Below, in pieces: positions 2,641 to 59,291 of a stretch of DNA of 64,000 nucleotides. Position numbers and translations under genes: made by a program. Position 1 is the stretch's first letter; every line of letters begins with the position of its first letter. Below the pieces are notes generated by a model, which searched no databases, had not been told where the DNA came from, and saw only the letters and a list, made by a program, of their open reading frames with translations. Source of the stretch: Parcubacteria group bacterium M6-OD1-1 (GTDB lineage Bacteria > Patescibacteriota > Minisyncoccia > GWC2-36-17 > M10-OD1-4); assembly GCA_003056085.1 (NCBI GenBank), contig LSNK01000001.1, positions 8,481 to 72,480 of the forward strand, in the 5' to 3' direction.

Positions 2641-3203
2641 GGCTCATCGGCATTATTAAAAATTCTTTTTACATCATCGGGAGTAATAAGTGTATCTTGT
2701 TCACCAGCAAATAAAACAATCGAGGCTGTTATTTTTGCAACATCTTCAACAACATTGTATTGTGTTCTGTCCTCTACATGCGAGAAAGGTACACGAAACT
2801 CTCGTTTTTTATCTCTGTTGCTTGGCAAATCGCGAGTAGATACACTCACGCCAATTTCTTTCCATTCTCTTTCTCTCTTTGGTGTCATTGATTCGTCCGA
2901 TGATGGCATAATGCCAAGCACTTTTGAAATTCGGTTATCACGCGCTGCATACAAAAGCGAAACCATGCCACCACGACTATGTCCGCCAAGCAAAATGTCT
3001 GTATATTCGCTTTGGGTTAGCGTATATTCAAGTACACTTTTTATATCGGAAAGATATTGCGTAATTGTATAATCAGTAATATCGCCATCACTATCCAAAA
3101 CGCCAGTTGGATCAAAGCGCACCGAAGTATATCCATGCTTAGTTAATTCATTTGCTAGTTCCGCCAATCCGACATAGTCTTTTGAGTCCAAAAGCCCGGA
3201 CAA
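2571..3203 (-). CDS. Alpha/beta-fold hydrolase (GHSRGG nucleophile elbow); the N-terminal 32 codons sit in another frame up to the ATG at 3296-3298 (frameshift in a T4 run, plus-strand A-run at 3190-3193)
   Basis: The ORF as given starts at TTG. The upstream frame reads MNITKDFIKGTKGNLSVAIHYPETKTEKLAILCPGF and joins LDSKDYVGLAELANELTKHGY if one T is added; LAILCPGFLDSKD is the typical HGF oxyanion segment. Confidence 0.75.
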   Translation of the reverse strand: MSGLLDSKDYVGLAELANELTKHGYTSVRFDPTGVLDSDGDITDYTITQYLSDIKSVLEYTLTQSEYTDILLGGHSRGGMVSLLYAARDNRISKVLGIMPSSDESMTPKREREWKEIGVSVSTRDLPSNRDKKREFRVPFSHVEDRTQYNVVEDVAKITASIVLFAGEQDTLITPDDVKRIFNNADEPKTFTIIPKVGNFSSRITPVSTR

Positions 3204-3309
3204 AGTATCGCCAGTTTTTCCGTTTTTGTTTCTGGGTAATGTATCGCAACAGAAAGATTGCCTTTTGTTCCTTTTATAAAATCTTTTGTGATGTTCATAT
3301 TGAAATTGT

Positions 3310-3909
3310 TTACTTTGTAATTTGCTCTATCAACTCTGGAAGCTCTTCAACTTGGAAGTGTCCGCTATCCTCAAAAATGTGCTTTTGTGCTCTTAACAAC
3401 TCTTCCGCGTATGCCTCAAAATCTCCGAAGTCAACAACATCGTCATCTTTTGAATGATACAAGTGTATTTCCGAAACTTGCTTTTCTATATTTTCAAGTG
3501 TGCCCGTCAATACAAAACTTGAACGCTTGATACAACTCCTATCGCCAAACGGAGCGGCGAGCAAATGCAACGACTTTATTTTTCTCAGGTATGTATTCTC
3601 TGCAAGATACTTTACAAGAAATACACCACCGAGAGAGATGCCAACAAGAACAACATCATCGTCAATATACTGCGTATATTTCTCAAACCAAATCTTCCAC
3701 TCGTTATATTTTGCATTCCAAGCACACGGCATTTGCGGTTTTATAAGTTGGTAATTTTCACCGAGATCTTCTTCAAGAGATTGACTCCATTTTTTAGGTG
3801 GCTCGTCATTCGGGTCACTTGGTTCAGTAGACTTAAGAAAATCCAAATATGCCTCGTTATTTTCCCAAGACTCACCACCGTGTATTAAAATTACTTGTTG
3901 TTTTTTCAT
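3310..3909 (-). CDS. Alpha/beta hydrolase, YdeN/RBBP9-like serine hydrolase family
   Basis: VILIHGG...W...VLVGISLGG pattern. Confidence 0.75.
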   Translation of the reverse strand: MKKQQVILIHGGESWENNEAYLDFLKSTEPSDPNDEPPKKWSQSLEEDLGENYQLIKPQMPCAWNAKYNEWKIWFEKYTQYIDDDVVLVGISLGGVFLVKYLAENTYLRKIKSLHLLAAPFGDRSCIKRSSFVLTGTLENIEKQVSEIHLYHSKDDDVVDFGDFEAYAEELLRAQKHIFEDSGHFQVEELPELIEQITK

Positions 3910-3913
3910 ATTT

Positions 3914-4123
3914 TTATTTCGTTAAATCTCCAACACTAACTCCAAGCGCACTCGCAACCTTTTCCATTGTGCTAATTGTAAGATTTTGTTTACCATTCTC
4001 AACATTACTGATATATGCTCTATCTAAATCTAACGCTCGGCAAATGTCGCCTTGCGACATTCCTTTTTCTAAGCGTATCTTTTTCATATTGTCTCCAAAT
4101 TTTTTTGCTGTATTTTGACTCAT
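3914..4123 (-). CDS. XRE-family HTH transcriptional regulator
   Basis: MKKIRLEKGMSQGDICRALDLDRAYISNVENGKQN is an HTH_3 motif. Confidence 0.85.
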   Translation of the reverse strand: MSQNTAKKFGDNMKKIRLEKGMSQGDICRALDLDRAYISNVENGKQNLTISTMEKVASALGVSVGDLTK

Positions 4124-4198
4124 GTTTTATCTAAAAGTTATCAACTTTGGTATTTTAACATACCATTATGTTATCACTCAATAGTAAGTTTCAATGTG

Positions 4199-4288
4199 CG
4201 GAGGGAACAGGATTTGAACCTGCGGTAGGCGTAAACCTACACATCCTTTCCAAGGATGCGCCTTAAACCACTCAGCCATCCCTCCAAA
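4199..4288 (-). tRNA. tRNA-Ser (anticodon GGA), long variable arm
   Basis: Reverse complement GGAGGGATGGCTGAGTGGTTTAAGGCGCATCCTTGGAAAGGATG...GGTTCAAATCCTGTTCCCTCCG folds as a class II tRNA with a 7-bp acceptor stem. Confidence 0.9.
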
Positions 4289-4331
4289 TTTGAAATTAAT
4301 TTTTATTTCGTCCTTGGAGAAAATCTTACTA

Positions 4332-4946
4332 TCATACGGACTTATATGTCAACATCTGCACAAACGCAAAAGCAACGGCGATGTAAAGAATATATTGAGC
4401 GGTTACAAGAAGCATTGAAATTGGAAATATCATATAAATAAACAAAATGCTAACACCTACAGATTGAAAAATCATTTTTACTTTTCCGAATTTTTCTGAC
4501 TGAACCGTAACACCTTGATATCTTTTTTTGTAATAAGCTCCTAAAACTATAATCAACTCTATAAGTATTATAGCAAACGCCAACCAAATGCTTAAAAACT
4601 TTGGTATTAAAACAACTGCCGTTGTTCCTATTAAAAGCTTATCTGCCAATGGATCAAAAAGTTTACCCCAATTTGTCACTTTATTTTGCGTCCTTGCCAA
4701 AGCCCCGTCCAACGCATCTGAAAATGCAGATACAATAAACAAAATAACGCCCAAAATATATTCCTCTCCGACTAAAAGCAGTAAAACAAAAGGAATAGAT
4801 AAAAAACGAAATATAGTAAGATGATTTGGAGTAACCCAAGACGGCAAAAATCTCAAAAAGACAAAAGCTAAAAATTTATCTGACTTTGTAACCTTTTTGG
4901 CTTTTTGATATGTGTAGTCTTCTCCTGTTGTGTTTTCTAAAAACAT
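4332..4946 (-). CDS. pgsA: CDP-alcohol phosphatidyltransferase (phosphatidylglycerophosphate synthase-like)
   Basis: DALDGALAR...G...DPLADK motif; multiple TM segments. Confidence 0.8.
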   Translation of the reverse strand: MFLENTTGEDYTYQKAKKVTKSDKFLAFVFLRFLPSWVTPNHLTIFRFLSIPFVLLLLVGEEYILGVILFIVSAFSDALDGALARTQNKVTNWGKLFDPLADKLLIGTTAVVLIPKFLSIWLAFAIILIELIIVLGAYYKKRYQGVTVQSEKFGKVKMIFQSVGVSILFIYMIFPISMLLVTAQYILYIAVAFAFVQMLTYKSV

Positions 4947-4996
4947 GTTTTGTTAGATTATAAATTATAGGTGTTAGGTTATAGGAAATATTATTT

Positions 4997-5908
4997 CTAT
5001 CTATCCATATCTTGTAAAGCCTTGATGCGTTCTTCCATAGGAGGGTGCGTCATAAAAAGCTTTCCCAACTTTGCTTTAAACCCCTTTTCGCGAAATGGAT
5101 TTGAAATATACATATGCGCTGTTGCGTGACTTGCTTTTTTCATCTCTCCCGGATAACTTGAGATTTTTTTAAGCGCGCTTGCAAGTCCGTCCGGATAACG
5201 CGTCATTAAAGCCCCTGACGCATCTGCTAAAAATTCTCTTTTTCTTGATATTGCAAGGTGAATCAAACTTGCGGCAATCGGCGCAAGTATAGCCATAACA
5301 ATACCCGCAACAAGAAGTATTAACTGAAGTTTTCCGTCTCCTCCGTTGTTGTTTCTTCTGCCTCCTCCAAACCAAAATGTATAACGCAAAAACATATCGG
5401 ATAAAATAGCGATAAACCCAACCAAAACGACAGAAATTGTTGAAACTAATATGTCTCTGTTTTTAACATGAGAAAGCTCATGAGCCAAAACTCCTTCAAG
5501 CTCTGACTTTTCAAGCCTTTCTAACAACCCTGAGGTCACGGCAACAGCCGCGTGTTCTGGGTCGCGTCCGGTTGCAAACGCATTTGGCGCAGGGTCGTTT
5601 ATCACATAAAGTTTTGGCATCGGAAGACCTGTTGCTATCGTTAAATTTTCAACAAGATTATACAATTCTCTGTGTGTTTTTGCATCAACTTGTTTTGCTC
5701 CTGACATTTTTATAACTATTTTGTCGGAGTTCCAATAAGAAAAAATATTCATAGCCAATGCAAAAACCACTGCAATATATAAAATAGAGGGGTTTCCCAA
5801 AATCTGCGCAAAAACCCAACCAACTAAAATAACAAAAACGAAAAACAGACTCATAATGAGCCAAGTTTTTCTCATATTCAATGATTCATAGTTATATGCT
5901 GTTGCCAT
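4997..5908 (-). CDS. htpX: Zinc metalloprotease HtpX (M48)
   Basis: HELSHVKNRD HEXXH motif; TM helices; full-length similarity. Confidence 0.9.
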   Translation of the reverse strand: MATAYNYESLNMRKTWLIMSLFFVFVILVGWVFAQILGNPSILYIAVVFALAMNIFSYWNSDKIVIKMSGAKQVDAKTHRELYNLVENLTIATGLPMPKLYVINDPAPNAFATGRDPEHAAVAVTSGLLERLEKSELEGVLAHELSHVKNRDILVSTISVVLVGFIAILSDMFLRYTFWFGGGRRNNNGGDGKLQLILLVAGIVMAILAPIAASLIHLAISRKREFLADASGALMTRYPDGLASALKKISSYPGEMKKASHATAHMYISNPFREKGFKAKLGKLFMTHPPMEERIKALQDMDR

Positions 5909-5943
5909 TTTGTTAGATTATAGGTGTTAGGTTATATGAAATT

Positions 5944-7404: not shown

Positions 7405-7407
7405 AAA

Positions 7408-9424: not shown

Positions 9425-10120
9425 TTATCCGAAATACTTTTCTTTATAAAAACGAAGCAGCTGTTCCGCCTCCGGAATACAAACAGGGTCACCAGTTCCC
9501 ACTTTTGTTTTTTTTTGAAGTTTTTCAAAAGTATCTGCTCCTTCAAGCACCGCTTCTTCAATATCTTTATCTGTTACATTTAAAACTTTATCTATAACTT
9601 TTTTGCCTTCCACTTTTATTCTGTCGTTTTGTCCTGTTCTTCTAAAAAAATCATTAATGGCGCTTTGAAGCGCTTTGTCTCCTAAAACAGAGCAGTGAAT
9701 TTTCCTGTTTGGAAGACCTCCTAATCTTTCCATTATGTCTTGTGGTTTTATCTTCAAAGCATCCTCCACTTTCATGCCTCCATTTTCCAAAAGCATAACA
9801 GAAAGCATAGATGTTGAAGCAATAGCGGACGCGCATCCGAAGGTCTGCCATTTTGCATCTTTTATTTTCTCTGTTTTTTCATCCACCAAAAGCCAGATTT
9901 TCATCATATCTCCGCACGCAGGAGAACCAACCATACCCAAAGCGTTGTATTTAAACTTTCCTTCCATGTCGGTCGTCAAAAAATTCCTCGGATTAAAAAA
10001 ATGATCTTTTACATTTTCCGTGTAAACCCATTTTTCTTTTTTATCATAAGAAACAACATCGGATTCACTTCTTTTATTTTTTTTATTTTCGTTTTTCATA
10101 AAATATATTCTAAATTTCAA
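9425..10120 (-). CDS. nifU: Fe-S cluster assembly scaffold, NifU/IscU family
   Basis: GSPACGD and FGCASAIAS IscU motifs; adjacent to the cysteine desulfurase gene. Confidence 0.8.
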   Translation of the reverse strand: MKFRIYFMKNENKKNKRSESDVVSYDKKEKWVYTENVKDHFFNPRNFLTTDMEGKFKYNALGMVGSPACGDMMKIWLLVDEKTEKIKDAKWQTFGCASAIASTSMLSVMLLENGGMKVEDALKIKPQDIMERLGGLPNRKIHCSVLGDKALQSAINDFFRRTGQNDRIKVEGKKVIDKVLNVTDKDIEEAVLEGADTFEKLQKKTKVGTGDPVCIPEAEQLLRFYKEKYFG

Positions 10121-32258: not shown

Positions 32259-35200
32259 TTATTTATCCTCAAGAACTTTATTAATATCAAACCCGGTTCC
32301 TGCAGGAATTAATTTACCTAAGATAACATTTTCTTTTAGCCCGCGAAGCGTATCCTCTTTGCCTGCGATTGACGCGTTAATAAGAACCTTCGATGTTTCT
32401 TGAAATGACGCTGCCGATAAAAATGATTCTGTTGAAAGAGAAACCCTTGTAACTCCCAAAAATAATTGAGCACCGGTTGCCTGAGCTACACCCTTCTTTT
32501 TTGCTTTCTTGTTTTCCCTTTTGAAAATTCCTTTTTCAACTATATCTCCCGTTATTAATCCAGTCTCTCCTGAATCTTTAACTCTGATTCTTGAAAACAT
32601 CTGTCTTACAATAACTTCAATATGTTTATCGGAAATATAAGCTCCCTCTGCCGTGTATATTTTTTGAATCTCAGAAATAATATATCTTTCAGACTGTCTT
32701 ACACCGGCAACCTTAAACAATTCACCAATCTCCAAGTGACCTTCACAAAGCTGAGTTCCTTCCAAAACCCTATCTCCTTTGGAAACCCAAAGCGCTGAAA
32801 GCAATGGAATTTTATATTCTGCGTATTGTTTTTCTTCTTTCTTGTCATTTTTCTTTTCCACCTTCATATCCGCCTCAAAAAACTCACTATCTATCTCAAC
32901 TTTAATTATGTGATTCTTATCGTCTTTTTGTATATCAATAATCTTTCCCGAAACATCAGAAATAACAGCTTTTCCTTTTGGAGGTCTTGCCTCAAAAATT
33001 TCCTCAATACGAGGAAGACCCTGAGTAATATCTCCACCTCCTGCAACTCCACCAACATGGAAAGTCCTCATAGTAAGTTGAGTTCCCGGCTCACCGATAG
33101 CTTGCGCAGCAACTATACCAACGGGTGACCCAAGATTAACAAGTTTATTATTTCCAAGGTCATAACCATAACACATTTGACAAACACCCTTGTCTGATTT
33201 GCAAAGCATTACTGACCTTACTTTAATATGATCAATCCCTTCTTTATTAATTTTTTCCGCCGCATCTTTTGTTACGAATTTTCCTTTTTTAACTATAACT
33301 TTCCCGTCTTTTCCTTTTATAGACTCAACTGCCATTCTTCCAAATACTCTTGATGCAAAATTCTGACCTAAGGCATCTGAGTCTTTTCTTAACATAACAA
33401 TGCCCCTGTCATCACCGCAATCCTCTTCTCTCACAACAACATCCTGCGCCACATCCACCAATCTTCTTGTTAAATATCCCGCGGATGCGGTTCTTAAAGC
33501 GGTGTCGGCTGTACCTTTTCTGGCTCCATGAGTGGAAATAAAGTACTCCAACACTTCAAGTCCTTCTTTGTATGATTTTTTAATAGGAAGTTCTATAATG
33601 TCTCCCGCAGGATTCACAACGGGACCTTTCATTCCGGACATCTGAACCAACTGACCAACCGAACCTCTCGCCTTTGAACTTAAAATTGTATCTATTGGAC
33701 CGTATTTTTTTAGATAATTCGGGACAAGCTCTCCTATCTCTTGTTTTGTTCTTGTCCAAACTTCAACAACTCTTCCGTATCTTTCATTGTTTGTTAAAAA
33801 CCCATCTTGATATTGCTCTTGAATTTTTTCTACTTCCTTTTCAGCAGCTTCTAATATTTCGGGTTTTTTTGGAGGAACAACAAGATCGCTCATCCCCCAG
33901 GAAATTCCTGATTTTGTAGCGTATATAAATCCAAGTTTTTTCATAGTATCAAGAACTTTAGCGGCGTCGTCTCCGTATCTTTCTATAATCTCGCCTGTTA
34001 ATTTTCTAAGCTCTGATTCATCAAGCTCTTTATTTACAAAACCAAAATCATTTGGAAGAGCTCTTGAGAAAATAATTCTTCCAACTGATGTCTCTAAATA
34101 TTTTTTATCTCCGAGCGCTTCTTTTTCTTTTGGTTTTGGCCTGATTTTTACTCTCGCATTAATATCTACAAGATTAAAATCATAAGCAAGAACAGCCTCA
34201 TTTTTTGAAGTAAATATTTTTCCTTCACCTTTTGCTCCGTCTTTAATAGCGGTCAAAAAGTAAGATCCCAACACAATATCCTGAGTTGGATTTGTAATGG
34301 GCTCACCTGATGCCGGCTTTAGAAGGTTTTTTGATGCAAGCATGAGTTCTTTTGCCTCTATTTGAGCGGTTTTTGTTAAAGGCAAGTGAACCGCCATTTG
34401 GTCTCCGTCAAAGTCTGCATTAAAAGCCGCACAAACCAAAGGATGAAGCCTAATGGCCATACCTTCTATAAGTAAAGGTTTAAACGCCTGAATACCAAGC
34501 CTATGAAGAGTCGGCGCTCTGTTTAAAAGCACATATTTATCTTTAATAATTTCTTCCAAGATAGCCCAGACTTCGTCGGGTGTATCTTCAATAAGCTTTC
34601 CCGCCCCTCTTATATTGTAAGCTAATTCTCTTTCTATTATTTTATGAATGACAAATGGCTTGAAAAGCTCCAGCGCCATTTTCTTAGGAAGCCCGCATTC
34701 TCCAAGTTTAAGTTCAGGTCCAACAACAATAACTGAACGACCGGAATAATCCACACGCTTACCAAGTAAATTTTGTCTAAACCTACCGGACTTACCCTTA
34801 AGCATATCAGCAAGCGATTTAAGTTGTCTTTTCTGACCTGTGGACGCCATAACAGCATTTCCTTTTCTTGCAGAGTTATCTATCAATGCATCAACAGATT
34901 CCTGGAGCATCCTCTTTTCATTTCTCACAATAATCTCAGGAGCATTTAACTTAATAAGTTTTTTTAGTCTGTTGTTTCTGTTAATAACTCTTCTGTAAAG
35001 ATCGTTTAAATCGGAAGATGCATATCTCCCTCCATCAAGCTGCACCATAGGCCTTAAACCTGAAGGCATAATGGGAAGCACAGTCAAAAACATTGAACTT
35101 GGATTTACGCCTGATTTCAAAAATGCTTGTACAACCCTTATTTTTTTTATAATCTGATTTTTCTGAATAGTCTTTGCTGTTTTTTCAGCTTCACTTAAGT

Positions 35201-43740: not shown

Positions 43741-44169
43741 CTTGTTTTCTTCGTACGAAACAAATTTTAAATGTCCTTGTTTTTTTTCTTTGATCACTAA
43801 ATACAGTAAAGTTAACCTAAGGATAACCCTTAAATAACAATGGAAAAGTTACTTCCTTCTCTTACATTTTTCTGCGATTGGCTTATTAGTATTGCTCGCC
43901 TGAACACTTCACAGTGCTTACAGCTGCAACCTATCAACGTGATAGTCTTTCACGGGCCTATAGGATAAATCCAACGAGACCTAATCTTGGGTTGTGCTTC
44001 GAGTTTAGATGCTTTCAACTCTTATCACGACCGAACTTAGCTACCCAGCAATGCCCTTGGCAGGACAACTGGTACACCAGAGGTTCGTCCACTCCGGTCC
44101 TCTCGTACTAGGAGCAGCTTCCCTCAAGTCTCTACGCCTACAGCAGATAGAGAACCAACCTGTCTTACG

Positions 44170-44668
44170 CAAATGTAGCTACTAAAAATTTATTCAGTAA
44201 CGCCGCCATTACTGGCGGGATCGGACTATATCTTCATCCATCTATTTTAGATGGAGGCTAACGTTTAGTCTCTACGGGTAGTTATGAATTTTATTGAGGA
44301 GCCAACGATATTGTTGTTGGCTCTACTTAGGGTAGGAACATAGCTAAACATATTCCACATTGTGGTTTCTGCAAACGCTCATGTTCAGCACATCGGCATA
44401 TCCCAGCTATTTATCCCGTGCGTCCGCGGGATCCTTCGGGCCCCGCCTCAAGTGTGCCGGCGTGTTAATTCACACCGCTTGTCTTAGAGAATAGATATCC
44501 TCAATAAAATTCATAACCTTCCCTCGGTATTGTCCATGTTATACAACATTAGGATTTCACCGATATAAGTTAGCTTCTCATACAAAATCACTTTTGTATG
44601 CCGCCGTATATGATGTCAAACCTCGGATTCAGACTGTAAAACATCCTTTCTTTTAAAAAAGGTGCTTT
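44170..44668 (-). mobile_element. Group I intron without ORF in 23S rRNA at the E. coli U2593/C2594 equivalent
   Basis: Exon junction GGGTTCAGACCGT | ...~499 nt... G | CGTAAGACAGGTTGG aligns to GGGUUUAGAACGU|CGUGAGACAGUUCGG. The 5' exon ends in U and the intron ends in G. Confidence 0.65.
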
Positions 44669-44737
44669 ACGGTCTGAACCCAGCTCGCGTACCGCTTTAA
44701 TTGGCGAACAGCCAAACCCTTGGAAGCTTCTCCACCT

Positions 44738-44768
<31 letters not shown>

Positions 44769-44804
44769 GAACCTTGCCGTCGATATGAACTCTTAGGCAA
44801 GACC

Positions 44805-44841
<37 letters not shown>

Positions 44842-45330
44842 TTCGCACTTTCTACAAAGTTACGTCGGATCACTAAGTCCTGCTTTCGCAACTGCGCGAC
44901 TTGTTAGTCTTGCAGTAAAGCCGGCTTATGCCTTTACACTATCAGTCCGATTTCCATCCGGACCTAGCCGACCTTAATGAACGCCTCCGTTACCATTTGG
45001 GAGGCTAGCGCCCCACTAAAACTGTCTACCAGCCACTGTCCCCTTAAGGTTTTACCTTAAAAGTTAGTATTGCAATTATAAGAGAGTGGTATTTCACTGA
45101 CGACTCCATGTCACCCGAAAGCGACACTTCAAAGTCTCCCACCTATGCTACGCAATTAAAACAACAATACAATAACAAGCAACAGTAAAGCTCCCGGGGT
45201 CTTTCTGTCTAGCTGCAGGAAGAGGGCATCTTCACCCCCACTGTAATTTCACCGAGTGATTCGTTGAGACAGTTCCCAAGTCGTTACGCCATTCGTGCAG
45301 GTCGGAATTTACCCGACAAGGAATTTCGCT

Positions 45331-46072
45331 CGATCTTTGTTACTGATTCTACCTAAATAGAATTGGTGTAGTCATTTCTGCTACACTCTCTATGTCGCCA
45401 TAGAGTCCGGACTATATCATCACGCTTTTTTACAGCGCGCCTGGCGTATAGTCTCTGAGGATTCTAAAAATCTGGATTGTTTTTTTCGATTCATTAACTC
45501 TATTTTTTTTGCTATTTTCTTCATTCCTTTCATGGAAAGATGTTCTTTTTTCGTCATTATTTCCATTATTTCAGCAAAAATTTTGAAATCTTTTCTTTTT
45601 GCTGTTTTTAAAGAATTACTTCTGAAAAACGGAATTATTTTTTCATTTAAATCATCCATAGATCTTACACAAAATCTTAAAAGATTTTCTTTATGATCAT
45701 CATATCGATTATTTTTAAAAATTTTTCCGCAATTAAAATAGTCTTTAAATAAAGTTAAAGCATCTAAGCTTTTCTCCCCTTGAGTTATTACAAACTCAGG
45801 GAAAACTTGCCATCCAAGTTTGGAAGTTTTGTTTTTTATAATACTAACAGAGAAACAACCTTCTCCATCAGTAAAACCAATTATCCAACCTATAATTTTT
45901 AGCCTTTCCTGCTGATTGTCTGCACTGGATACATTTTCACTATAATAGTTTTTCATATCTATGGAATAATTATACCATAGATATTTTTCTATTATTAGTA
46001 GTACCAGATACTACAGGGTTTTACCCACAGGTGTTCCAGCATATGGCCAGGTTTTACTAAGGCAAGAAATTC
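45331..46072 (-). mobile_element. Group I intron in 23S rRNA at the E. coli U1931/A1932 equivalent (helix 69-71 region), carrying a LAGLIDADG homing-endonuclease gene
   Basis: Exon junction ...TAACTATAATCGTTCTAAGGT | ~742 nt ...AAAGATCG | AGCGAAATTCCTTGTCGGG aligns to CUAAGGU|AGCGAAAUUCC. It follows the U ... G rule. Confidence 0.75.
45420..45956 (-). CDS. LAGLIDADG homing endonuclease (single-motif, I-CreI-like)
   Basis: IIGWIIGFTDGEGCF LAGLIDADG motif; 178 aa; located inside the 23S intron. Confidence 0.85.
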   Translation of the reverse strand: MKNYYSENVSSADNQQERLKIIGWIIGFTDGEGCFSVSIIKNKTSKLGWQVFPEFVITQGEKSLDALTLFKDYFNCGKIFKNNRYDDHKENLLRFCVRSMDDLNEKIIPFFRSNSLKTAKRKDFKIFAEIMEIMTKKEHLSMKGMKKIAKKIELMNRKKQSRFLESSETIRQARCKKA

Positions 46073-47844
46073 ACCTTAGAACGATTATAGTTATCGCTGA
46101 CGTTCACCGGCGCTTCGGGCGTTAGCAGTATAATAAATTATACCACCTTCACCGTTAACGTTCCGGCACTGGTCAGGCGTCACCCCCTATACATCCTCTT
46201 ACGAGTTAGCAGAGAGCTGTGTTTTTGGTAAACAGTCGCCTGGGATACTTTCGCTGCGGCCTTAACTGAAAAACTGGATTTTGAGGGGAAGTGTACTCTT
46301 ACGCTTCCCGGATTTTAAAAATGGTCGGAAAGGATTACGCAGACATACTGCATATTTTGGGGTATTTAATCCCAAAACAGATATATCATTTTCGGTAATC
46401 CTCACCGTTTAAGCTTTACTCAAAATCCAGCTTCCCAGCAAGGCAAGCCTTATTCCGAAGTTACGGCTGCTTTTTTGCCGAGTTCCTTAACGAACTTTCA
46501 CTCGTTCACCTTGGTCTTCTCGACCTATCTACCTGTGTCGGTTTACGGTACGTGCACACTAAAAATATTCTTAGAAGTTTTTCTCGGTCGCCAGCTCATC
46601 TGAATTGGTGAAAAAACACCTCTTCTCAACTCTTGGAGTTGTGATTAAACACAGCTTTCCGGATTTACCTGGAAAACCTCCTTAAGCAAAGAACGTAAAT
46701 CCAATAATACGCTCAAACTACTTAGCCACGTCACTCCATCGATTTTTAGCATGGTGCAGGAATATTAACCTGCTGTCCATCAGCTCCGCCGTTCGGCATC
46801 GCCTTAGGTACGACTAACCCTTGGTTGATTGTCATTGCCAAGGAAACCTTAGATTTTCGGTGTACTGGGATCTCACCAGTATTGCGGTTACTTATGCCAA
46901 CATTCTCACTTCCTGACGCTCCAGCATGGCTCACGCCAACACCTTCACAGCAGACAGGAACGCTCCCCTACCACACCGCTGCAAAGCAGCGATATCCACA
47001 ATTTCGGTAGCATACTTTAGCCCCGGTACATTTTCGGTGCAAAATCTCTAAACTAGTGGGCTGTTACGCACTCTTTAAAGGATGGCTGCTTCTAAGCCAA
47101 CCTCCTAGCTGTTTAAGAAATTCTACCGCCTTTAATCACTTAGTATGCATTTTGGGACCTTAATTTGTGGTCTGGACTCTTTTCCTTTTGACCATGGAGC
47201 TTATCCCCCACAGTCTGACTCCTGAGCTATATTGAATGGAATTCGGAGTTTGATTGGGATAGACAGCTTGCGCCATTCTAACTCATCCAGTGCTCTACCT
47301 CCATTCATAAACACTCAAGGCTATACCTAAATATATTTCGGGGAGAACCAGCTATTACCAAGTTCGATTAGCTTTTCACTCCTTACCACAGGTCATCCGA
47401 ACGTGTTGCACAGCGTATCGGTTCGGGCCTCCCTTTGATTTTACTCAAAGTTCACCCTGCCCATAGTAAGCTCACTTGGCTTCGGGTTTTATGCATGCTG
47501 CATAGACTTGTCACTTAATGATTCTTTCTGCTGCAATTAATATTTTTCTACTACGCAAACCTCACCACTCGTCAGTGAATAATTTTATTCACTTCCTCGT
47601 GTTTCAGCTTGCTCATGACGAAAAATATCAATTTCGCTACGAAAAATCCATTAAGAGACAAGTCTATTTCGCCCTATTAAGACTTGGTTTCCCTACGCCT
47701 ACCCTCTTTGCGAGGTTAAACAGGCAACATACATAAACTCGTTGGCTCATTCTCCAAAAGGCACGCCGTCACCCTGATAAATCAGAGCTCCGACTAATTG
47801 TAAGTATATAGTTTCAGTTCTATTTCACTGCCCTCACCGGGCTA

Positions 47845-47885
<41 letters not shown>

Positions 47886-48654
47886 TAAAAAGTATTTAGC
47901 CTTGGGAGAGTAGTTCTCCCGGATTCCTACGGGGTTGTCTTTCCCCGCAGTACTTAGGTACAAATACTTAGAGTGTTTACTAATTTTCATTTACGGGACT
48001 ATTACCCTCTATGGTTGTCCTTTCCATGACAATTCAACTAAAAAGCAAAACTTGTTTTACTCTATTTTAAATAAATTTAAAAACGCATTTGCCCTGCAAC
48101 CCCTAATATGTGTAATAAATTATACTTATTAGGTTTAGGCTTCTACCGTTTCGCTCGCCGCTACTAAGGTAATAACTATTGTTCTCTTTTCCTCTGGTTA
48201 CTGAGATGTTTCACTTCACCAGGTTCGCTGCTTTTGATTTTAACTCAAAAGCTATCTTGATTTTACTCAAGATGGGTTCCCCCATTCGGAAATCTCCGGA
48301 TCAAAGGTTGCTGAGCACCTCACCGAAGCTTATCGCAGCCATGCCACGTCCTTCATCGCCTTTTTATGCCTAGGCATCCACTATATACCCTTATTCCGCA
48401 AAAAAATGAAAGTTAAGGAATAACTTTTCTTTTGTTTCACTCAATAAAATTTTCTCCTGCATAGAAGAAAAAATTATAATTTTTGTTATTGATAACCACC
48501 ATAAAATAAATCTTATTATTTTATAATGATTAAAGGAATAACTTTACTGTATTTAATTATCAAAGTTCTCACAGGCTCCAAACCTGTCCTAAAATAAATT
48601 TTGTTATGAAATTTATTTTAGGACAAACTTGGTACATTTTGTTTTGTATAAAGG

Positions 48655-49837: not shown

Positions 49838-49997
49838 ATGAATACTAACCTTAAAAAAAACCAAGGAGCAATTTGAAGCAAGATGCATCAATGATGGGCT
49901 CTGCCCAAAATGCTTGGAAAAGTTGAAAAAAGAAATATCTTCATGCGGAAGTGAATACGAACTAATCTGCATAAATTGCAATCTTATAATAGACTAA
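49838..49997 (+). CDS. Small zinc-ribbon protein (~52 aa) interrupted by a frameshift in an A8 run (49853-49860)
   Basis: AAGGAG RBS, then ATG; MNTNLKK, then with 7 As ...TKEQFEARCINDGLCPKCLEKLKKEISSCGSEYELICINCNLIID (CxxC...CxxC). With 8 As the frame stops after 13 codons. Confidence 0.4.
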
Positions 49998-50584: not shown

Positions 50585-51610
50585 TTATAATAATTTAGAA
50601 ACTTCCACCACATGTTTAACTAAAGAATAAGTATACCCCATCTCATTGTCATACCATGCTAAAATCTTAACAAAATTTCCATCAACTACTTTTATAAAAG
50701 GCAAATCAACTATTGAAGCGTATGGAGTTCCTATAATATCAGTGGATACAAGCTGTTCATCAGAAACTGAAAAAATTCCCTGCCATTTTTCTTCTTTTGC
50801 CGCATTTCTGAAAATCTCTTGAAGCTCCTCAACGGAGGTATCTCTTTTGGCTAAAAAAGTAAAATCTGCTATTGAACCGGAAATAACAGGAACACGCATA
50901 GCAACTCCGTCAAATTTTCCTGCAAGTTCTTTCACGGCTTTTGTTACAGAAATTGCTGCGCCTGTTGTTGAAGGTATTATATTTTGCGCTGCAGCTCTTC
51001 CTTTTCTCCAGTCTTTCGCATCCGGACCATCAACTATTTTTTGAGTTGCCGTATAACCATGAATTGTATTTAAAAATGCCTTCTCTACTCCCACAGTTTC
51101 TGACATTATTTTCGCAACAGGTGATGTTGAGTTTGTAGTGCAAGATCCATTTGAAGAAACTAAACATGTTTTAAGCTCATCTTCATTTATACCCATTAAA
51201 ATTGTTTTACCCGCTTCTCCTTCTTCACCCTTCCCCGGAGCTGAAATAACGACTCTTTTTGCGCCGGCATCAATGTGCGCCTTTGCATCTTCATATTTTG
51301 TAAAAAATCCGGTGGATTCAACAACGATATCAATTCCAAGGTCGCCCCAAGGAAGATTATTTGGGTCTTTTTCTGAAACGAAATTTACCTTCTTTCCACC
51401 CACCACCAAATAAATTTTATCTCCATCTTTTTCTGTTGATATCTCAAGATCTGATTTTTTTTGTGCAGAATCATACTTTAAAAGGTAAGCAAGATTTTCT
51501 ACATCACCAAGATCATTTATCGCAACTACATCAAGCTCCGAATTTTCGAAAGCTACTTTAAAAAATTGTCGGCCTATTCTTCCAAAGCCATTTATCGCTA
51601 CTTTTTTCAT
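50585..51610 (-). CDS. gap: Glyceraldehyde-3-phosphate dehydrogenase
   Basis: INGFGRIGR NAD-binding motif; catalytic SCTTN region. Confidence 0.95.
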   Translation of the reverse strand: MKKVAINGFGRIGRQFFKVAFENSELDVVAINDLGDVENLAYLLKYDSAQKKSDLEISTEKDGDKIYLVVGGKKVNFVSEKDPNNLPWGDLGIDIVVESTGFFTKYEDAKAHIDAGAKRVVISAPGKGEEGEAGKTILMGINEDELKTCLVSSNGSCTTNSTSPVAKIMSETVGVEKAFLNTIHGYTATQKIVDGPDAKDWRKGRAAAQNIIPSTTGAAISVTKAVKELAGKFDGVAMRVPVISGSIADFTFLAKRDTSVEELQEIFRNAAKEEKWQGIFSVSDEQLVSTDIIGTPYASIVDLPFIKVVDGNFVKILAWYDNEMGYTYSLVKHVVEVSKLL

Positions 51611-53489: not shown

Positions 53490-53490
53490 C

Positions 53491-54366: not shown

Positions 54367-55536
54367 TTAAAGTTCTATAATCAAAACTTCATCATAATCA
54401 TTTCTCGGCGACCACATCAACCAGCCTGTATTCTCCTTCCCCAAAACATCATAAGTTGCTTTTATCTGCGCCTCAATCATCGCCGGTGTATATTCAGCTC
54501 CAAGATCAAACACTTGAATCCAAGGTCTTATTTTTGGTTTTGCTTCTTCTTTTTTTTCTCCTAAAGAATCAAGTCCTTGATCTAAAGTAAGACTAACAAC
54601 CTCATAAGGGTAATCGGCCGGATTTTGAAATCCAAAATTCCCAGCACCAAAATGAGACGGATAAACCATTGGATATATATAATCAAAATTATCAAGCATA
54701 TCCACCAATTTCTGACCTATTCCCAAACCATCTCCTCTTAAAAAAGTATATCCAAAAATATCCAAAGAAAGTTTAATGTCTTTATCGTATTCTTTTAACT
54801 TCTCTTTTGAATATGCTCCAAATCTTTTTATAACGCTGCTTTTTGACTCAATGCCATCCCAAAAAGGATAAACTATTTTAGTTAAATCGCCATCGGTGGG
54901 AAATCTTATATAATCATAATTTATTTCATCAAATCCAACATCAATCGCTCTTTTTGCTATTTTAATATTATGATCCCAAGCTCCTTTTGATGCCGGATCA
55001 GACCAAGCATAACCTCTCCTGTCACGCCATATGCTTCCGTCTGATTTTTTCAAAGAGAACTCCGGGCTTGTTTTTGCCAAACCGCTATCTTGAAAAACAA
55101 CTACTCTTGCTATTGTATATATATTTTTCTTATGCAAGTCATCTATAATTTCTTTAAGATTGCTTATTTTATCAAAAATCAACTCTCCATCAGAACCTTT
55201 AACGTCAATAACGATACTGTTTAAGTCGGTACTCTCCATAAGTTTCAAAAAATACTCTCTTTTGTTTTTTGAACTTATACTCCACATAGTGGAATACACC
55301 GCACGCATAACATTCGGAGTTTTTACACGAGATACACTAACCTTCTCTTCCAAAACCTCTTTTTTTGCTGATTTTCCTTCTTCTTTTTTTCTATCATTGG
55401 TTTCCACTAAAACTGAAGCACCTGTATCCCGATAAACAAACTTGTGGCTTGTTATGTCCGGCTTGCTATACAAAAAAACTCCGGCAAAAACTCCCGTCAA
55501 AATCAATCCCAACAATAAAACATAACCATTTTTCAC
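54367..55536 (-). CDS. Putative glycoside-hydrolase-like protein (DUF4015-like), membrane-anchored
   Basis: N-terminal TM segment; conserved IDVK...NYDYIRFPTDGDL...YPMVYPSHF pattern; assignment tentative. Confidence 0.5.
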   Translation of the reverse strand: MKNGYVLLLGLILTGVFAGVFLYSKPDITSHKFVYRDTGASVLVETNDRKKEEGKSAKKEVLEEKVSVSRVKTPNVMRAVYSTMWSISSKNKREYFLKLMESTDLNSIVIDVKGSDGELIFDKISNLKEIIDDLHKKNIYTIARVVVFQDSGLAKTSPEFSLKKSDGSIWRDRRGYAWSDPASKGAWDHNIKIAKRAIDVGFDEINYDYIRFPTDGDLTKIVYPFWDGIESKSSVIKRFGAYSKEKLKEYDKDIKLSLDIFGYTFLRGDGLGIGQKLVDMLDNFDYIYPMVYPSHFGAGNFGFQNPADYPYEVVSLTLDQGLDSLGEKKEEAKPKIRPWIQVFDLGAEYTPAMIEAQIKATYDVLGKENTGWLMWSPRNDYDEVLIIEL

Positions 55537-55541
55537 TTCTA

Positions 55542-56111
55542 TTATTTTTTAATTCTCAATTCTACTTCTTCCCAGCTTATATTTTTCATAAAAGCATCTA
55601 TGTAACTTTTTTTATCCATTTTATAATCTAAAATAAAAGCATGCTCAAATACATCCATCACCAAAAGAGGTGTCGTTCCAGCGAGATACCCCAAGTCATG
55701 TTCATTTATCCAAATATTAAACAACCCATCACTGTCTTTGTCATAACACAAAACAGACCAGCCAATACCGCGCATTCCGCCTGTTGCCTTAAAATCTTCC
55801 TCCCATTTTTCAAATGACCCAAATTTTTCCACTATTTTTTTATAAATATCGCTCTCCTCATTAACCAAAACAGCATCTTTTTTTAGGTTGCCAAAATAAA
55901 GCTCATGCAAACGCATGCCATTAAACTCCCAACCAAAACGACGTTTTAATTCAGCATATTCCGGAGTTCCTGTCTTTACTTCAAAAGAAAGTTCGCCAAA
56001 TTTATTTACATTTAAAACATATCCTTCATAAAGCTTGAAATGATTTTTAAGCAAGTCATCACTAAAACCTTCCATCCCTAATAAATTATTGTATTTTTTT
56101 GCTTCGTACAT
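55542..56111 (-). CDS. Fe/Mn superoxide dismutase-like protein (divergent)
   Basis: C-terminal DVFEHAFILDY and GIGWSVLCY match SOD DVWEHAYY and GSGWAWL. Some N-terminal His ligands are not obvious. Confidence 0.6.
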   Translation of the reverse strand: MYEAKKYNNLLGMEGFSDDLLKNHFKLYEGYVLNVNKFGELSFEVKTGTPEYAELKRRFGWEFNGMRLHELYFGNLKKDAVLVNEESDIYKKIVEKFGSFEKWEEDFKATGGMRGIGWSVLCYDKDSDGLFNIWINEHDLGYLAGTTPLLVMDVFEHAFILDYKMDKKSYIDAFMKNISWEEVELRIKK

Positions 56112-56217
56112 AATAATATGAATTTCTAATAAGATTCTAATAACATAATTTTAAAACATTCAAGATTCTTAAATTTAAAATTGATTTAAAATTAAAAATT
56201 AGAAATTAAAAATTAAA

Positions 56218-57447
56218 TTAATTAATAATGTCCTTTAAATTAAAATTAACATCATTTAATTTATCAAGATAAGACGATAAGTCCATCCTCCTGTCTATCA
56301 GCATTGTAATAATTCCTTTCTCTTTATTCATATTAATCTGAGTAGCTCCCACAAGTATATTATTTCTTAAAAACAGCTGTTCGTACTCTTTATTTTCCAA
56401 ATTACCGCGTTTTACAACCTTGGTGTTTTTGTCTTTTTTTACATCGCCGATAAAAGATATGTTCAAACCAAAATTTACAACATTATACCCTGAAACATGA
56501 CGACACAAAGTTTTTTCTCCTACCATATTCAACCCGGCAATCTTCCCCTGTAAAAATGCTGCCGCCCAGTTTCTAAATAGATAATACTTTTCTAAAACAA
56601 CATCGTAAAATTCAGCCACATCTCCCGCCGCAAAAACATCGGGTACATTTGCTTCCAAATATTCATTTACAACAACCCCTTCCCTTGTCTTAATAAGAGA
56701 GTTCTCCAAAAACTTTGTATTTCTTTCAATCCCGATAGCAAAAACCAGCAAGTCAAAAGAATAGACATTTCCTTTTTTGGTTATTACGTTTTTTAGAACA
56801 TCATCTCTTTTGATTTTTTCAATCTCTTCGTTAAAAAATAAAGAAACTCCCGCTTCCTTAAGATTCTCTTCTATTATTTTATTTGAAGCATCATCAAACG
56901 CTCCACCCAAAAAAGAACACCCTCGTATTAAAAGCGAAACCTCTATGCCGTTTTTTAAAAAAGCCTCTGCAAGCTCAATGGCATTGAAACTTCCCCCAAC
57001 TAAAATAATTTTTTTAACTTCGGGAATTTTTTCTTTCAGTTTTTCTGCATCATCTATATTTTGAAAATAAAAAACATCGGGACCTTCAAAATCTGAAATA
57101 TCTATTTTTTTTGGTTTGGCTCCTGTTGCTATTAAAAGTTTTTCATAAAAAATTTCTTTTTTATCATCAAAAATTATTCTTTTCTCTTTCGTGTTTACAC
57201 TTACTGCATTATTTCCAAAAAATACATTTATATTTTTCTCTTTATAATTTTTTTCTTTCCTTAAAAAAACATCTTCTTTTTTTGCCGTTCCCTCAAGATA
57301 GTTTGGCAAAAGAACCCTTGAATATAAAGGATATTTTTCATTTCCTAAAATGGCAATGGAGCCCTCAATATCTTTTCCTCTTATGGTTTCAGCCGCCGTT
57401 GTCCCCGCTATACCACCGCCTATTATCAAATATTTGTATTTGTCCAT
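56218..57447 (-). CDS. FAD-dependent pyridine nucleotide-disulfide oxidoreductase (NADH oxidase / CoA-disulfide reductase-like)
   Basis: MDKYKYLIIGGGIAGTTAAE FAD dinucleotide motif; second Rossmann motif ILVGGSFNAIE. Confidence 0.8.
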   Translation of the reverse strand: MDKYKYLIIGGGIAGTTAAETIRGKDIEGSIAILGNEKYPLYSRVLLPNYLEGTAKKEDVFLRKEKNYKEKNINVFFGNNAVSVNTKEKRIIFDDKKEIFYEKLLIATGAKPKKIDISDFEGPDVFYFQNIDDAEKLKEKIPEVKKIILVGGSFNAIELAEAFLKNGIEVSLLIRGCSFLGGAFDDASNKIIEENLKEAGVSLFFNEEIEKIKRDDVLKNVITKKGNVYSFDLLVFAIGIERNTKFLENSLIKTREGVVVNEYLEANVPDVFAAGDVAEFYDVVLEKYYLFRNWAAAFLQGKIAGLNMVGEKTLCRHVSGYNVVNFGLNISFIGDVKKDKNTKVVKRGNLENKEYEQLFLRNNILVGATQINMNKEKGIITMLIDRRMDLSSYLDKLNDVNFNLKDIIN

Positions 57448-57646
57448 GATGCTTATCATATCACAAACCAAAGCTCTCTTGCAAAAAAGCTTATAAAAAA
57501 ACAAACCCGGCAATTGCCGGGTTTTTATCTGATTATTTATAAATGATACAAAAAGGAAGAAGCATGTTTGTATAATGAATATGCTTGTAGTGCAGTATAA
57601 AAAAGCCCTTTCTGTATTTACAGAAAGGGCTTAAAGAATTGAACGA

Positions 57647-57916
57647 TTACTGGTTTACAAAACTAAAATGTTCGGTTTTCTTGTTTTTGCGATGCGCCTT
57701 AATTACATTTCCTGAAAAATGAATCTTTTCGGAACGCAATGGTTGACACAATTGTAGTTCGCGCATTTTGGACACCTTCTCGCATTTAGAAGAGTCAAAC
57801 AATTGTTTACCGTTAAAAACTGGGCGAAACTCACTTTGTCTTTGCCCAGCATTAGCGAATGAAACAGTTAGCGACGCAACAAAAGAAAGAACAACAATAA
57901 AAAATATAGAACGCAT
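57647..57916 (-). CDS. Small secreted protein (signal peptide), hypothetical; higher GC
   Basis: MRSIFFIVVLSFVASLTVSFANA signal peptide. Confidence 0.5.
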   Translation of the reverse strand: MRSIFFIVVLSFVASLTVSFANAGQRQSEFRPVFNGKQLFDSSKCEKVSKMRELQLCQPLRSEKIHFSGNVIKAHRKNKKTEHFSFVNQ

Positions 57917-57981
57917 AAACTTCTCCTTTTAGGATTTGGATTGATTGGTGTTTTGTAAAATACAAAACACCAATATGACAA

Positions 57982-58998
57982 TTAATACAACTGGTTCCAG
58001 TCAAGCCACTGCCAGCTTGTCCATTGACCAAGATCGGGATCGTAGTAGGCAGTATTTCGCATTAGCGGGTTACTTCTATTTGTTAATTGGTTCACATATG
58101 CGGTACGCCCATCAGAAAATTTAAACTGCATCCAATGTATATCCCATGCAGAGTCAACACTCCATGGAGCCTCCTTTCCATATGTATTCACATTAACTTC
58201 TGCAAATCTCGGATCATTTTCAACTGCACGAATCATATCCAACCGAGCACGATCGTCTTGGTAGTTATTACGTGGTACTGGAATATGCAATGTGGAGCCA
58301 CTCACGTTTGAAGAAACAGCATATTGACGCCCATTCTCGAAAAAGTTATTGTCAATATCGTAGTAATAATACCACGATCCACCGTTTTCATATAACAAAT
58401 GATGCACGTCCATCCATCCCGCTTCAATTGCTTTCTTGAGCGACTTTCGTTCATTATTCCACTCAATATATGCTGTTGAAGATGGTGCGTTCCCAGACAT
58501 TGTGAATATCGTGTAGTATCCGCCAGTAGCAGCCGAGTACACAATTTCATCCCGACGATCATCAACAACAAGTGATGGAGCACGATACTTCAAAGCCTCA
58601 CTAACAGTCAGAGGGTTTTTGTAGGAATTCTCGGTAAGGCTAACTGAGCTATCCCATTGACCCTCCCAGTGCAAATGAGCAGGCCATCCTCCAGTGCCAC
58701 CAAGATAAGCAACCTCTTGCCCAGGATAAACCGTAACACCATTTCCTATTCCAGATGCAAAACCGTTCAAGTGAAAATATCCACTATCCCAAGTCTGTAC
58801 CCCATTTGAACCATGGGCATAAGGAAAGGAGTATCTGATATAAAGCTTATATCCGCCGGCAGAATTATTTACATCGTCTTTCCAGGAAACTTTCCCGTCA
58901 GCGATAGCAAATAAAGGATAGCCTGCATCTGTGTCTCCACCACAATTACCATTCCAATCCTCGCCCATATGATAGCCATAACCTACATTCAAATCCAT
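57982..58998 (-). CDS. M23 family metallopeptidase (LytM-like), secreted; the true start is probably the ATG at 59180-59182 after correcting a frameshift in the T8/A8 run at 59154-59161
   Basis: HxxxD...HLH motifs (YGYHMGEDWNG, GGWPAHLHWEG). The upstream frame gives MNIKSFFFFCIASLGVFLIGSANA signal peptide when the run is 7 nt. Confidence 0.8.
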   Translation of the reverse strand: MDLNVGYGYHMGEDWNGNCGGDTDAGYPLFAIADGKVSWKDDVNNSAGGYKLYIRYSFPYAHGSNGVQTWDSGYFHLNGFASGIGNGVTVYPGQEVAYLGGTGGWPAHLHWEGQWDSSVSLTENSYKNPLTVSEALKYRAPSLVVDDRRDEIVYSAATGGYYTIFTMSGNAPSSTAYIEWNNERKSLKKAIEAGWMDVHHLLYENGGSWYYYYDIDNNFFENGRQYAVSSNVSGSTLHIPVPRNNYQDDRARLDMIRAVENDPRFAEVNVNTYGKEAPWSVDSAWDIHWMQFKFSDGRTAYVNQLTNRSNPLMRNTAYYDPDLGQWTSWQWLDWNQLY

Positions 58999-59291
58999 AT
59001 GGTATTGTGCCTGGTAATATCCAGGGGTTCCGCAATTTGGACCTGTTTGATTTGGGTTATAGGGTAAAACAAAAGACCCAGCAGTTGGGGAGGTTGGCGT
59101 TATCGGACCTGCATTTGCAGAGCCAATTAAAAAAACGCCGAGGCTGGCGATACAAAAAAAAGAAGAATGATTTTATATTCATTCTATATCTCCTATATTG
59201 TTTATGTTAAAGTACAAGACCGATTGCCAATCAATCGGTCTTGAGATAATAACATAATAATTATACTTCTTGCAACGCTTTTAGTTGTGGA

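Follow-up and report, generated by a model that had tools for sequence, protein, structure and literature searches.

Probable recent inactivation of four frameshifted accessory genes in a Parcubacteria group bacterium

In a 64,000-nucleotide stretch (the window) of the genome of Parcubacteria group bacterium M6-OD1-1, an uncultured CPR-type organism with a small genome, four accessory genes are out of frame, as read directly from the window sequence, and as many as seven further public assemblies show identical out-of-frame states. Repairing the frame of each of the four genes gave a protein that aligned end to end with intact homologues from Patescibacteria. Judging from these sequences, the four breaks are probably genuine mutations of the genome that reflect a recent, lineage-specific inactivation of accessory genes. 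Two of the four, encoding an alpha/beta hydrolase and a small secreted metzincin, are already multi-lesion pseudogenes. The other two, encoding a secreted M23-family peptidase and a small Zn-ribbon protein, each have a single lesion, are otherwise intact, and are OFF in every sampled population.

Results

A sequence-only reading of this DNA had described frame breaks in four genes, and all four were confirmed in the sequence (Table 1). It had also proposed a check of homologous loci, where we found that relatives carry intact versions of every one of the genes. All four thus have the defining mark of a pseudogene, a frame that is disrupted in comparison with intact orthologues. Because intact homologues exist for all four, we regard the repaired frames as ancestral; the frameshifts themselves are not shared by relatives, whose tracts at these sites are in frame or interrupted. 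Within the sampled lineage, the disruption is fixed across independent samples, judged from consensus sequences that come from a few, partly related datasets, several of them possibly from one study. The hydrolase break is in the same state in L004, L005, and L006, and the M23 and metzincin genes are out of frame in L001 to L003 and L044 to L046; support is weaker for the Zn-ribbon gene, with one extra assembly only (L007).

Table 1. Coordinates of the frameshifted genes, their lesions, and adjoining features in the window
Feature	Position	Strand	Remarks
Serine-recombinase gene, truncated, N-terminal resolvase domain only	2278..2611	+	Pfam Resolvase PF00239
Alpha/beta hydrolase pseudogene	2571..3298	-	ATG at 3298; frame break at 3190-3193; 3' truncated at 2611
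T4 run, site of 1-nt deletion in the hydrolase gene	3190..3193	-	L052 in frame with T6
Zn-ribbon small gene (CPKC...CINC), frameshifted	49838..49997	+	Intact homologue P0225
A8 run in the Zn-ribbon gene	49853..49860	+	In frame if A7 or A10
Secreted M23-family peptidase gene, frameshifted in signal-peptide codons	57982..59182	-	HxxxD and HxH motifs intact
Polymorphic T tract of the M23 gene	59154..59161	-	T8 here, T9 elsewhere, both out of frame
Small secreted metzincin pseudogene	61145..61672	-	Intact homologues of 160-175 aa with HELGHALGLDH
TG to TGTG duplication (plus-strand CACA)	61262..61265	-	Splits HELGH from ALGLDH
64-bp stretch between TTATTTAA direct repeats	61668..61731	-	Deleted in haplotype B (L045, L046)

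The first part of the hydrolase gene, MNIT...KLAILCPGF, and the following LDSKDY... are in adjacent frames. One T added to the run at the break joins the two, and the N terminus repaired in this way, which the sequence-only reading had predicted, agrees with the invariant KLAILCPGFLDSKDY block of the ~255-aa homologues from Patescibacteria. At the break site, the relative L052 has the in-frame sequence GGTTTTTTAGAT. The mutation was probably the loss of one T from a short T5/T6 run. As evidence against a chance location, the T4 run is weak, since runs of at least 4 nt hold 16.7% of the window bases.

The hydrolase gene is damaged at its other end as well. It is without its last 26 codons (the catalytic His and ~25 residues); the C terminus reads IIPKVGN-FSSR... 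as opposed to IIPKVGH-DYR... in the homologues. Nucleotide homology with L052 ends exactly at position 2611, where the truncated hydrolase gene is joined tail to tail to a truncated recombinase gene (its resolvase match covers profile positions 2-86 of 145), and contigs L005 and L006 both terminate at the same position. We looked for the missing C terminus elsewhere in the window and did not find it. Because of the T4 run and the 3' truncation, phase variation is excluded for the hydrolase, which is a plain pseudogene.

The shift that the sequence-only reading had placed inside the HEXXHXXGXXH motif of the metzincin proved to be a duplication of 2 nt that separates HELGH from ALGLDH. Without the two extra bases, the gene encodes a protein of 174 aa whose full length aligns with intact homologues. 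The insertion, which probably arose as a tandem duplication, is common to all six of the six other assemblies that cover the site. In haplotype B, a 64-bp deletion additionally takes out the metzincin ATG and ribosome-binding site. Phase variation is excluded here too, because the duplication lies outside any homopolymer and the start codon has been deleted in that haplotype, and the metzincin is likewise a plain pseudogene. The sequence-only reading had named out-of-frame runs accompanied by additional inactivating mutations as the signature of plain pseudogenes. Such further lesions are present in the hydrolase and metzincin genes and absent from the M23 and Zn-ribbon genes.

In the Zn-ribbon gene, the ATG frame reaches a stop after 12 codons, and the CPKC...CINC part lies in the +1 frame. 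Shortening the A8 run to A7, the repair suggested earlier, makes the gene intact, as would lengthening it to A10, and an intact homologue of 57 aa exists (74% identity). The gene has a pN of 0.11 versus a pS of 0.75, and the AAGGAG upstream and the hairpin downstream are both kept in the homologue L051, which at the tract site has AAAAAAGAAACA, an interrupted A6GA3. The tract is A8 in both sequences available (the window and L007). Neither the A7 nor the A10 product had an exact match among ~15 billion proteins, and simple promoter and terminator scans at the locus gave no information. We found no alternative in-frame start upstream of the first functional motif in either the Zn-ribbon or the M23 gene.

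Editing the M23 tract from T8 to T7 restores MNIKSFFFFCIASLGVFLIGSANA followed by GP. This bears out the signal peptide that the sequence-only reading had expected, because M23 homologues of ~400 aa across Paceibacteria-type MAGs have an in-frame signal peptide at the tract position, and the L009 orthologue has T7 within it, in frame. The tract is T8 in four sequences (the window, L001, L002, and L044) and T9 in three (L003, L045, and L046). Exact repaired M23 proteins (T7 and T10 on two backgrounds) were missing from ~15 billion proteins, no full-length match above 64% identity was found, and the M23 pattern with any tract length gave 0 matches in JGI metagenomes. Relative to L001, a strain 0.6% divergent, the M23 gene has two substitutions only, both nonsynonymous, as against 11/39 in neighbouring genes, numbers too small to give a selection test any power. 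An observation that counts against decay is that the downstream frames of the M23 gene (~390 codons) and the Zn-ribbon gene (47 codons) are undamaged in a genome of 33% G+C.

We also considered whether N-terminal frameshifts recur among M23 homologues, and the short homologues proved to have other explanations. P0202 has a miscalled start, its full ORF being in frame; P0166 is on a chimeric contig; and P0207 carries TGA in frame where a Gly is conserved and probably belongs to a genetic code 25 lineage.

The genome contains 30 A/T runs of length 8, one of length 9, and none longer. About 20 of these 31 are in frame inside intact ORFs, including the 8-nt runs at 35141-35148 in rpoC and 51455-51462 in GAPDH and the A9 run at 9508-9516 in NifU. 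Runs of at least 8 nt cover 0.39% of the window bases yet hold two of the four breaks, which is not a chance distribution and fits slippage mutagenesis. We infer replication slippage as the mutational mechanism: at the Zn-ribbon A8 and in the M23 signal peptide (T8/T9), it would have acted at the longest A/T runs that are tolerated, and the M23 tract would then have undergone one further base change after the first inactivation. A scan in which every window run of at least 4 nt was edited by +/-1 was too noisy for use. Among other frameshift candidates, DnaB/RecR was an ordinary gene overlap, and NifU was a normal gene that holds the window's only A9 run, in frame.

The sequence-only reading had offered systematic homopolymer error as one explanation, which we reject. 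Sequencing or assembly artefacts would be in keeping with the location of three of the four sites in homopolymers, with the disagreement between assemblies (T8 versus T9) at one site, and with the possible derivation of several assemblies from one study. However, the same states were obtained from different pipelines and different runs, each M23 allele was recovered in three or more assemblies, in linkage with the 64-bp deletion, ~20 other runs of 8-9 nt are in frame, and the metzincin lesion is outside any homopolymer. Artefacts can hardly account for the breaks.

Transcriptional slippage is known to rescue poly(A)-frameshifted genes in insect endosymbionts. By analogy, the DNA could be out of frame here while the polymerase drops or adds a base within the A8 or T8-9 runs of some transcripts, which then encode the full protein. 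Runs of 8 are shorter than those at which slippage is known to be efficient, and relatives do not share the out-of-frame state: in place of a conserved out-of-frame slippery run, we found in-frame tracts in L009 (T7) and L052 (T6) and the interrupted tract in L051. In the Zn-ribbon gene, shifting by -1 at A_AAA_AAC would lead into the wrong frame. The intact downstream ORFs speak for rescue, as does the abrupt stop of A/T runs at 8, which fits a cost of slippage once a run fills the RNA:DNA hybrid, 9 nt in length (PMC5574713). Weighing these points, we think rescue by RNA polymerase slippage very doubtful. If the genes were expressed by this route, it should be visible in junction-spanning peptides such as SFFFFCIASLGVFLIGSANA or GPITPTSPTAGSF.

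The remaining alternative is slipped-strand phase variation, in which the M23 T8/T9 tract, and possibly the Zn-ribbon A8, would be reversible switches and the sampled populations mostly OFF. In its favour, the M23 tract differs in length between near-identical sequences, and 7 kb of dense coding sequence holds no other indel. Across the 6,221 bases that include it, L045 and the window differ at the tract alone, and a tract that differs without substitutions over 6.2 kb must mutate far more readily than ordinary sites, as contingency loci do. The tract occupies the 5' end of a gene for a secreted hydrolase, like the poly(A) of Listeria inlA (PMC2831843), and the downstream ORFs and M23 catalytic motifs are intact. 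Both tract variants also seem to coexist in samples, to judge from contig breaks or Ns where the linked deletion lies: at the 64-bp stretch, L003 terminates at 61667 and L001 carries Ns across.

Against switching, no in-frame M23 allele was found in the seven consensus sequences or in any collection searched, and homologues have no comparable switch. The part of the sequence-only reading that proposed a variable tract length stands for M23 (T8/T9), but both lengths are out of frame and no ON allele was found; seven of the seven M23 consensus sequences are OFF. A difference in repeat length, as expected of a contingency locus, was seen in M23 only: the Zn-ribbon A8 is unvarying in one other assembly, and neither the hydrolase T4 nor the metzincin TGTG behaves as such a repeat. 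An otherwise intact gene, also expected, is found for M23 and Zn-ribbon and is lacking for the hydrolase and the haplotype B metzincin. M23 tract length is, moreover, always linked to the state of the 64-bp deletion, which is irreversible, and this linkage points to a pair of stable haplotypes more than to a tract that switches rapidly. T8 and T9 were seen on two SNP backgrounds, which could mean that the tract has changed recurrently; SNPs lie at 59527, 59924, and 60128.

Phase variation is thus unproven, is ruled out for the hydrolase and the metzincin, and is unlikely as the explanation of the breaks. For the M23 and Zn-ribbon genes, we infer decay rather than switching.

Three features had escaped the sequence-only reading: the 3' truncation of the hydrolase gene, the T9 form of the M23 tract in other assemblies, and the loss of the metzincin start in one haplotype.

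Discussion

The four ORFs should be annotated as frameshifted genes or pseudogenes, neither silently corrected as sequencing errors nor called truncated proteins; public gene calls currently give a 338-aa M23 protein without a signal peptide and a 138-aa half metzincin. If the breaks are what they appear to be, the locus shows, on a small scale and clearly, how an episymbiont-type lineage is losing secreted hydrolases, with two coexisting haplotypes at different stages of decay and with slippage striking exactly at the longest homopolymers that the genome tolerates.

A literature search for repeat-mediated phase variation in the Patescibacteria/CPR radiation found no report. Were the M23 tract to switch, which is unproven, contingency-locus biology would extend to CPR, and the switch would act on a cell-wall-degrading enzyme that the bacterium might need to attach to host cells or attack them. 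That M23 T8/T9, perhaps with the Zn-ribbon A8, represents true contingency switches or slippage-rescued genes in Patescibacteria/CPR strikes us as distinctly unlikely.

A close known parallel is the 5' poly(A) of Listeria monocytogenes inlA, in which A7 keeps the frame and A6 breaks it, alleles of both kinds have been observed, and reversion has been measured at ~5.5e-7 (Orsi et al. 2010, PMC2831843). As in inlA, a gene whose product is secreted or displayed at the surface has a poly(A/T) run within its first few codons, a length change of 1 nt truncates the product after ~8 residues, the run is polymorphic among closely related strains, and relatives have an interrupted, stable run (A2GA4 in inlA, A6GA3 in the Zn-ribbon homologue). 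Unlike inlA, the window locus shows out-of-frame lengths only (T8 and T9), known from consensus sequences alone.

With the contingency loci of Neisseria, Haemophilus, Campylobacter, and Mycoplasma, the genes described here share a repeat within the 5' part of the coding sequence for a surface or secreted protein and, in the case of M23, length polymorphism between isolates. They differ in having a short A/T run in place of poly-G/C or longer repeats, in showing no ON state, and in that two of the four genes have nonrepeat or additional lesions.

Buchnera and Blochmannia have poly(A) frameshifts that are rescued by transcriptional slippage, at tracts usually of 9-10 nt or more that stay out of frame between strains. 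The present genome resembles theirs in being small and AT rich and in having A/T runs that break the frame of genes with no other damage, whereas its runs are 8-9 nt long and its relatives are in frame.

The remaining comparison is with recent pseudogenes of reduced or host-associated genomes. Unlike in typical cases, two of the four genes here still have one lesion, and the strains are too nearly identical to date the losses. In common with such pseudogenes, the genes differ from intact orthologues by single small indels, with 3' truncation and start loss as later additions, and accessory, nonessential functions are hit by lesions that are fixed across the sampled populations.

Four frame breaks and the ancestral frame

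The sequence-only reading described four genes as frame-broken and offered homopolymer sequencing errors or phase-variation switches as the cause. All four breaks were found as claimed, and comparison with homologues showed that at every locus the repaired frame is the ancestral one. In the hydrolase, adding one T to the T4 run fuses MNIT...KLAILCPGF with LDSKDYVGL... within what is an invariant block of homologues of about 255 aa, several hundred of which align with the repaired protein from residue 1. The closest relative, on contig L052 (78% nucleotide identity), has GGTTTTTTAGAT in frame at the break site. Changing T8 to T7 in the M23 peptidase restores a canonical signal peptide ending in ANA, followed by GP; residues 1-399 then align with homologues of about 400 aa, all with in-frame signal peptides, and the HxxxD and HxH motifs are intact. 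In the metzincin, two extra bases inside the HEXXHXXGXXH motif part HELGH from ALGLDH; once repaired, the protein matches 160- to 175-aa homologues carrying HELGHALGLDH over its full length.

Changing A8 to A7 (or A10) at 49853-49860 joins the two frames of the Zn-ribbon mini-gene. A search of 1.84 billion cluster representatives detected just one homologue, a 57-aa protein with 74% identity, whose DNA has AAAAAAGAAACA at the position of the A8 run. The substitution pattern (pN 0.11; pS 0.75, saturated), together with a ribosome-binding site and downstream hairpin conserved in the homologue, shows that this is a real protein-coding gene. The protein family appears extremely narrow. The homologue lies on a 335-bp contig (accession VAPH01) from the same accession series as VAPL01 and VAPM01, assemblies that carry the window's sequence, which hints at a common study.

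Coordinates of features in the window
Feature	Position	Strand	Remarks
Serine-recombinase gene, truncated	2278-2611	+	cut after ~110 codons, at resolvase-profile position 86 of 145
Hydrolase	ATG at 3298	-	frame break at T4 run 3190-3193
23S rRNA gene	43867-48404	-	4.5 kb vs 2.9-kb model
LAGLIDADG homing endonuclease ORF inside 23S rRNA gene	45420-45956	-	PF00961, E 4e-22
Zn-ribbon gene	49838-49997		ATG frame stops after 12 codons; CPKC...CINC in +1 frame
DUF4015 putative glycosyl hydrolase gene	54367-55536		holds 34 clustered window/L001 substitutions at 54644-55450
M23 peptidase	57982-59182	-	T tract at 59154-59161
Metzincin	61145-61672	-	TG to TGTG; plus-strand CACA at 61262-61265
64-bp deletion, second haplotype (L045, L046)	61668-61731		between TTATTTAA direct repeats
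LysM-domain gene, secreted cell-wall-binding protein	ATG 63295, stop 63648		2-nt T-run polymorphism upstream

Real mutations, two of them at the limit of run length

We retrieved contigs of other assemblies through exact-protein look-ups of genes neighboring the breaks; several of these assemblies probably come from the same study, so the samples are not fully independent. The hydrolase locus was identical to the window in three of them (two SRA runs and one GenBank metagenome assembly), the Zn-ribbon locus was the same in another (L007), and all six further sequences covering the M23 and metzincin loci carried the duplicated TG together with a T tract that was out of frame. The window has 31 A/T runs of at least 8 nt, and about 20 lie in frame within intact genes, including rpoC and that for GAPDH, where a chemistry miscounting 8-mers would have broken many. 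The single 9-nt run, A9 at 9508-9516, is also in frame, in a NifU-like gene. We therefore rejected sequencing error, since out-of-frame states recur in other assemblies and other long runs are in frame.

Runs of at least 8 nt make up 0.39% of the window's bases, and two of the four breaks sit in them, which suggests that the M23 and Zn-ribbon breaks arose by slippage. A/T runs number 272, 119, and 30 at lengths of 6, 7, and 8 nt, with one of 9 nt and none of 10 nt or more; runs of 6 to 8 nt are 3 to 4 times commoner than in shuffled sequence, and those of 9 nt or more are depleted. Given this cliff, the runs in the two broken genes are about as long as the genome tolerates. Orsi et al. found that prokaryotic genes similarly overrepresent A/T runs up to about 7 to 8 nt (PMC2831843). 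The 9-nt length of the RNA:DNA hybrid (PMC5574713) provides a mechanistic explanation for a ceiling of around 9 nt.

Relatives do not share the frameshifts at these sites, which speaks against programmed recoding. For the Zn-ribbon gene, a −1 shift at its A_AAA_AAC heptamer was rejected because it enters the wrong frame.

Further lesions in the hydrolase and metzincin genes

The hydrolase ends in IIPKVGN-FSSR..., where all homologues have IIPKVGH-DYR... and about 25 further residues, so the catalytic His is missing. Nucleotide homology to L052 breaks off exactly at 2611, beyond which lies a serine-recombinase gene in antisense orientation. Presumably, a deletion joined these two genes tail to tail. 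The missing C-terminal piece was absent from the rest of the window. Of the three contigs sharing this locus, L005 and L006 end exactly at 2611 and L004 ends at 2157, which suggests either further copies of the 455-bp segment elsewhere or a junction whose structure varies within the population.

The 64-bp deletion takes out the metzincin ATG and ribosome-binding site. Deleted and undeleted variants probably coexist in the samples, since contig L003 stops at 61667 and L001 has Ns at the site. Frame loss with extra lesions, by the sequence-only reading's own criterion the mark of a plain pseudogene, was thus found in the hydrolase and the metzincin; the M23 and Zn-ribbon genes have single frameshifts.

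A variable tract in the M23 gene

At the M23 tract, the window, L001, L002, and L044 have T8, and L003, L045, and L046 have T9. Across the 6,221 bases spanning the tract, L045 and the window differ nowhere else, and no comparison revealed another indel in about 7 kb of dense coding sequence. The tract is therefore far more mutable than ordinary sites. Such length variation would fit phase variation, but T8 and T9 are both out of frame; T7 or T10 would be in frame. Searches of about 15 billion proteins found no exact repaired M23 (T7 or T10, on two backgrounds), Zn-ribbon (A7 or A10), hydrolase, or metzincin protein. The best full-length M23 match had only 64% identity, and a pattern search of JGI metagenomes for the M23 gene at any tract length gave no match.

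In a SNP matrix, T9 was invariably linked to the 64-bp deletion, 2.5 kb away, and T8 to its absence, each combination occurring on two SNP backgrounds (sites 59527, 59924, 60128, and 62065). This implies recombination between coexisting strains or mosaic consensus contigs. Because the deletion cannot revert, one of these is needed anyway, so a single tract change suffices for the T8/T9 pattern and its linkage to the deletion; these data do not require recurrent switching. We consider phase variation unlikely, the M23 tract being a more plausible candidate than the Zn-ribbon tract, and rescue by transcriptional slippage less likely still.

N-terminally short M23 homologues were rejected as signs of a recurrent switch, being explained by start calling, a chimeric contig, and an alternative genetic code; a switch across the family is not supported. 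In L049 and L050, an in-frame TGA precedes the called homologue P0207 by about 170 nt and occupies the position of a conserved Gly (NGxCGG), suggesting a lineage that may read TGA as glycine (genetic code 25), with the M23 gene intact and untruncated. Upstream of homologue P0166, positions 1-200 of L047 change abruptly to unrelated high-G+C sequence; this contig is probably chimeric.

Genome setting and strain variation

With a G+C content of about 33%, the window is AT-rich; it contains rpoB/rpoC-sized ORFs and a 5S rRNA gene. Homologues of its proteins come almost all from Patescibacteria/CPR MAGs (such as Paceibacterota, Kaiser-, Yonath-, Vogel-, and Collierbacteria), so we regard the genome as of the Patescibacteria type. 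The endonuclease ORF inside the 23S rRNA gene shows that this gene has at least one intron-like insertion, of a kind common in CPR rRNA genes. Group I and group II intron families all scored below the Rfam gathering score.

The window and L001 differ at 42 positions in 7 kb, 34 of them inside the DUF4015 gene (24 synonymous), with the neighboring 4 kb near-identical. This cluster appears to be a recombination tract acquired from a more distantly related strain. At 63286-63289, ahead of the LysM-domain gene, a T run that separates the AAGGAGG ribosome-binding site from the ATG varies in length by 2 nt (GGATTTTAGAATG in the window, GGATTAGAATG in L001 and L044), altering the spacing between the two.

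Probable gene decay and the closest analogue of the case

The probable explanation, in our view, is that four accessory genes decayed recently and in a lineage-specific manner. The hydrolase and metzincin are multilesion pseudogenes, and the M23 and Zn-ribbon genes would carry single slippage frameshifts at maximal-length runs, one tract having since been altered by one further base. Among documented systems, the 5′ poly(A) tract of Listeria inlA (PMC2831843) comes closest and has the same anatomy; for inlA, unlike here, an in-frame allele was observed and reversion was measured.
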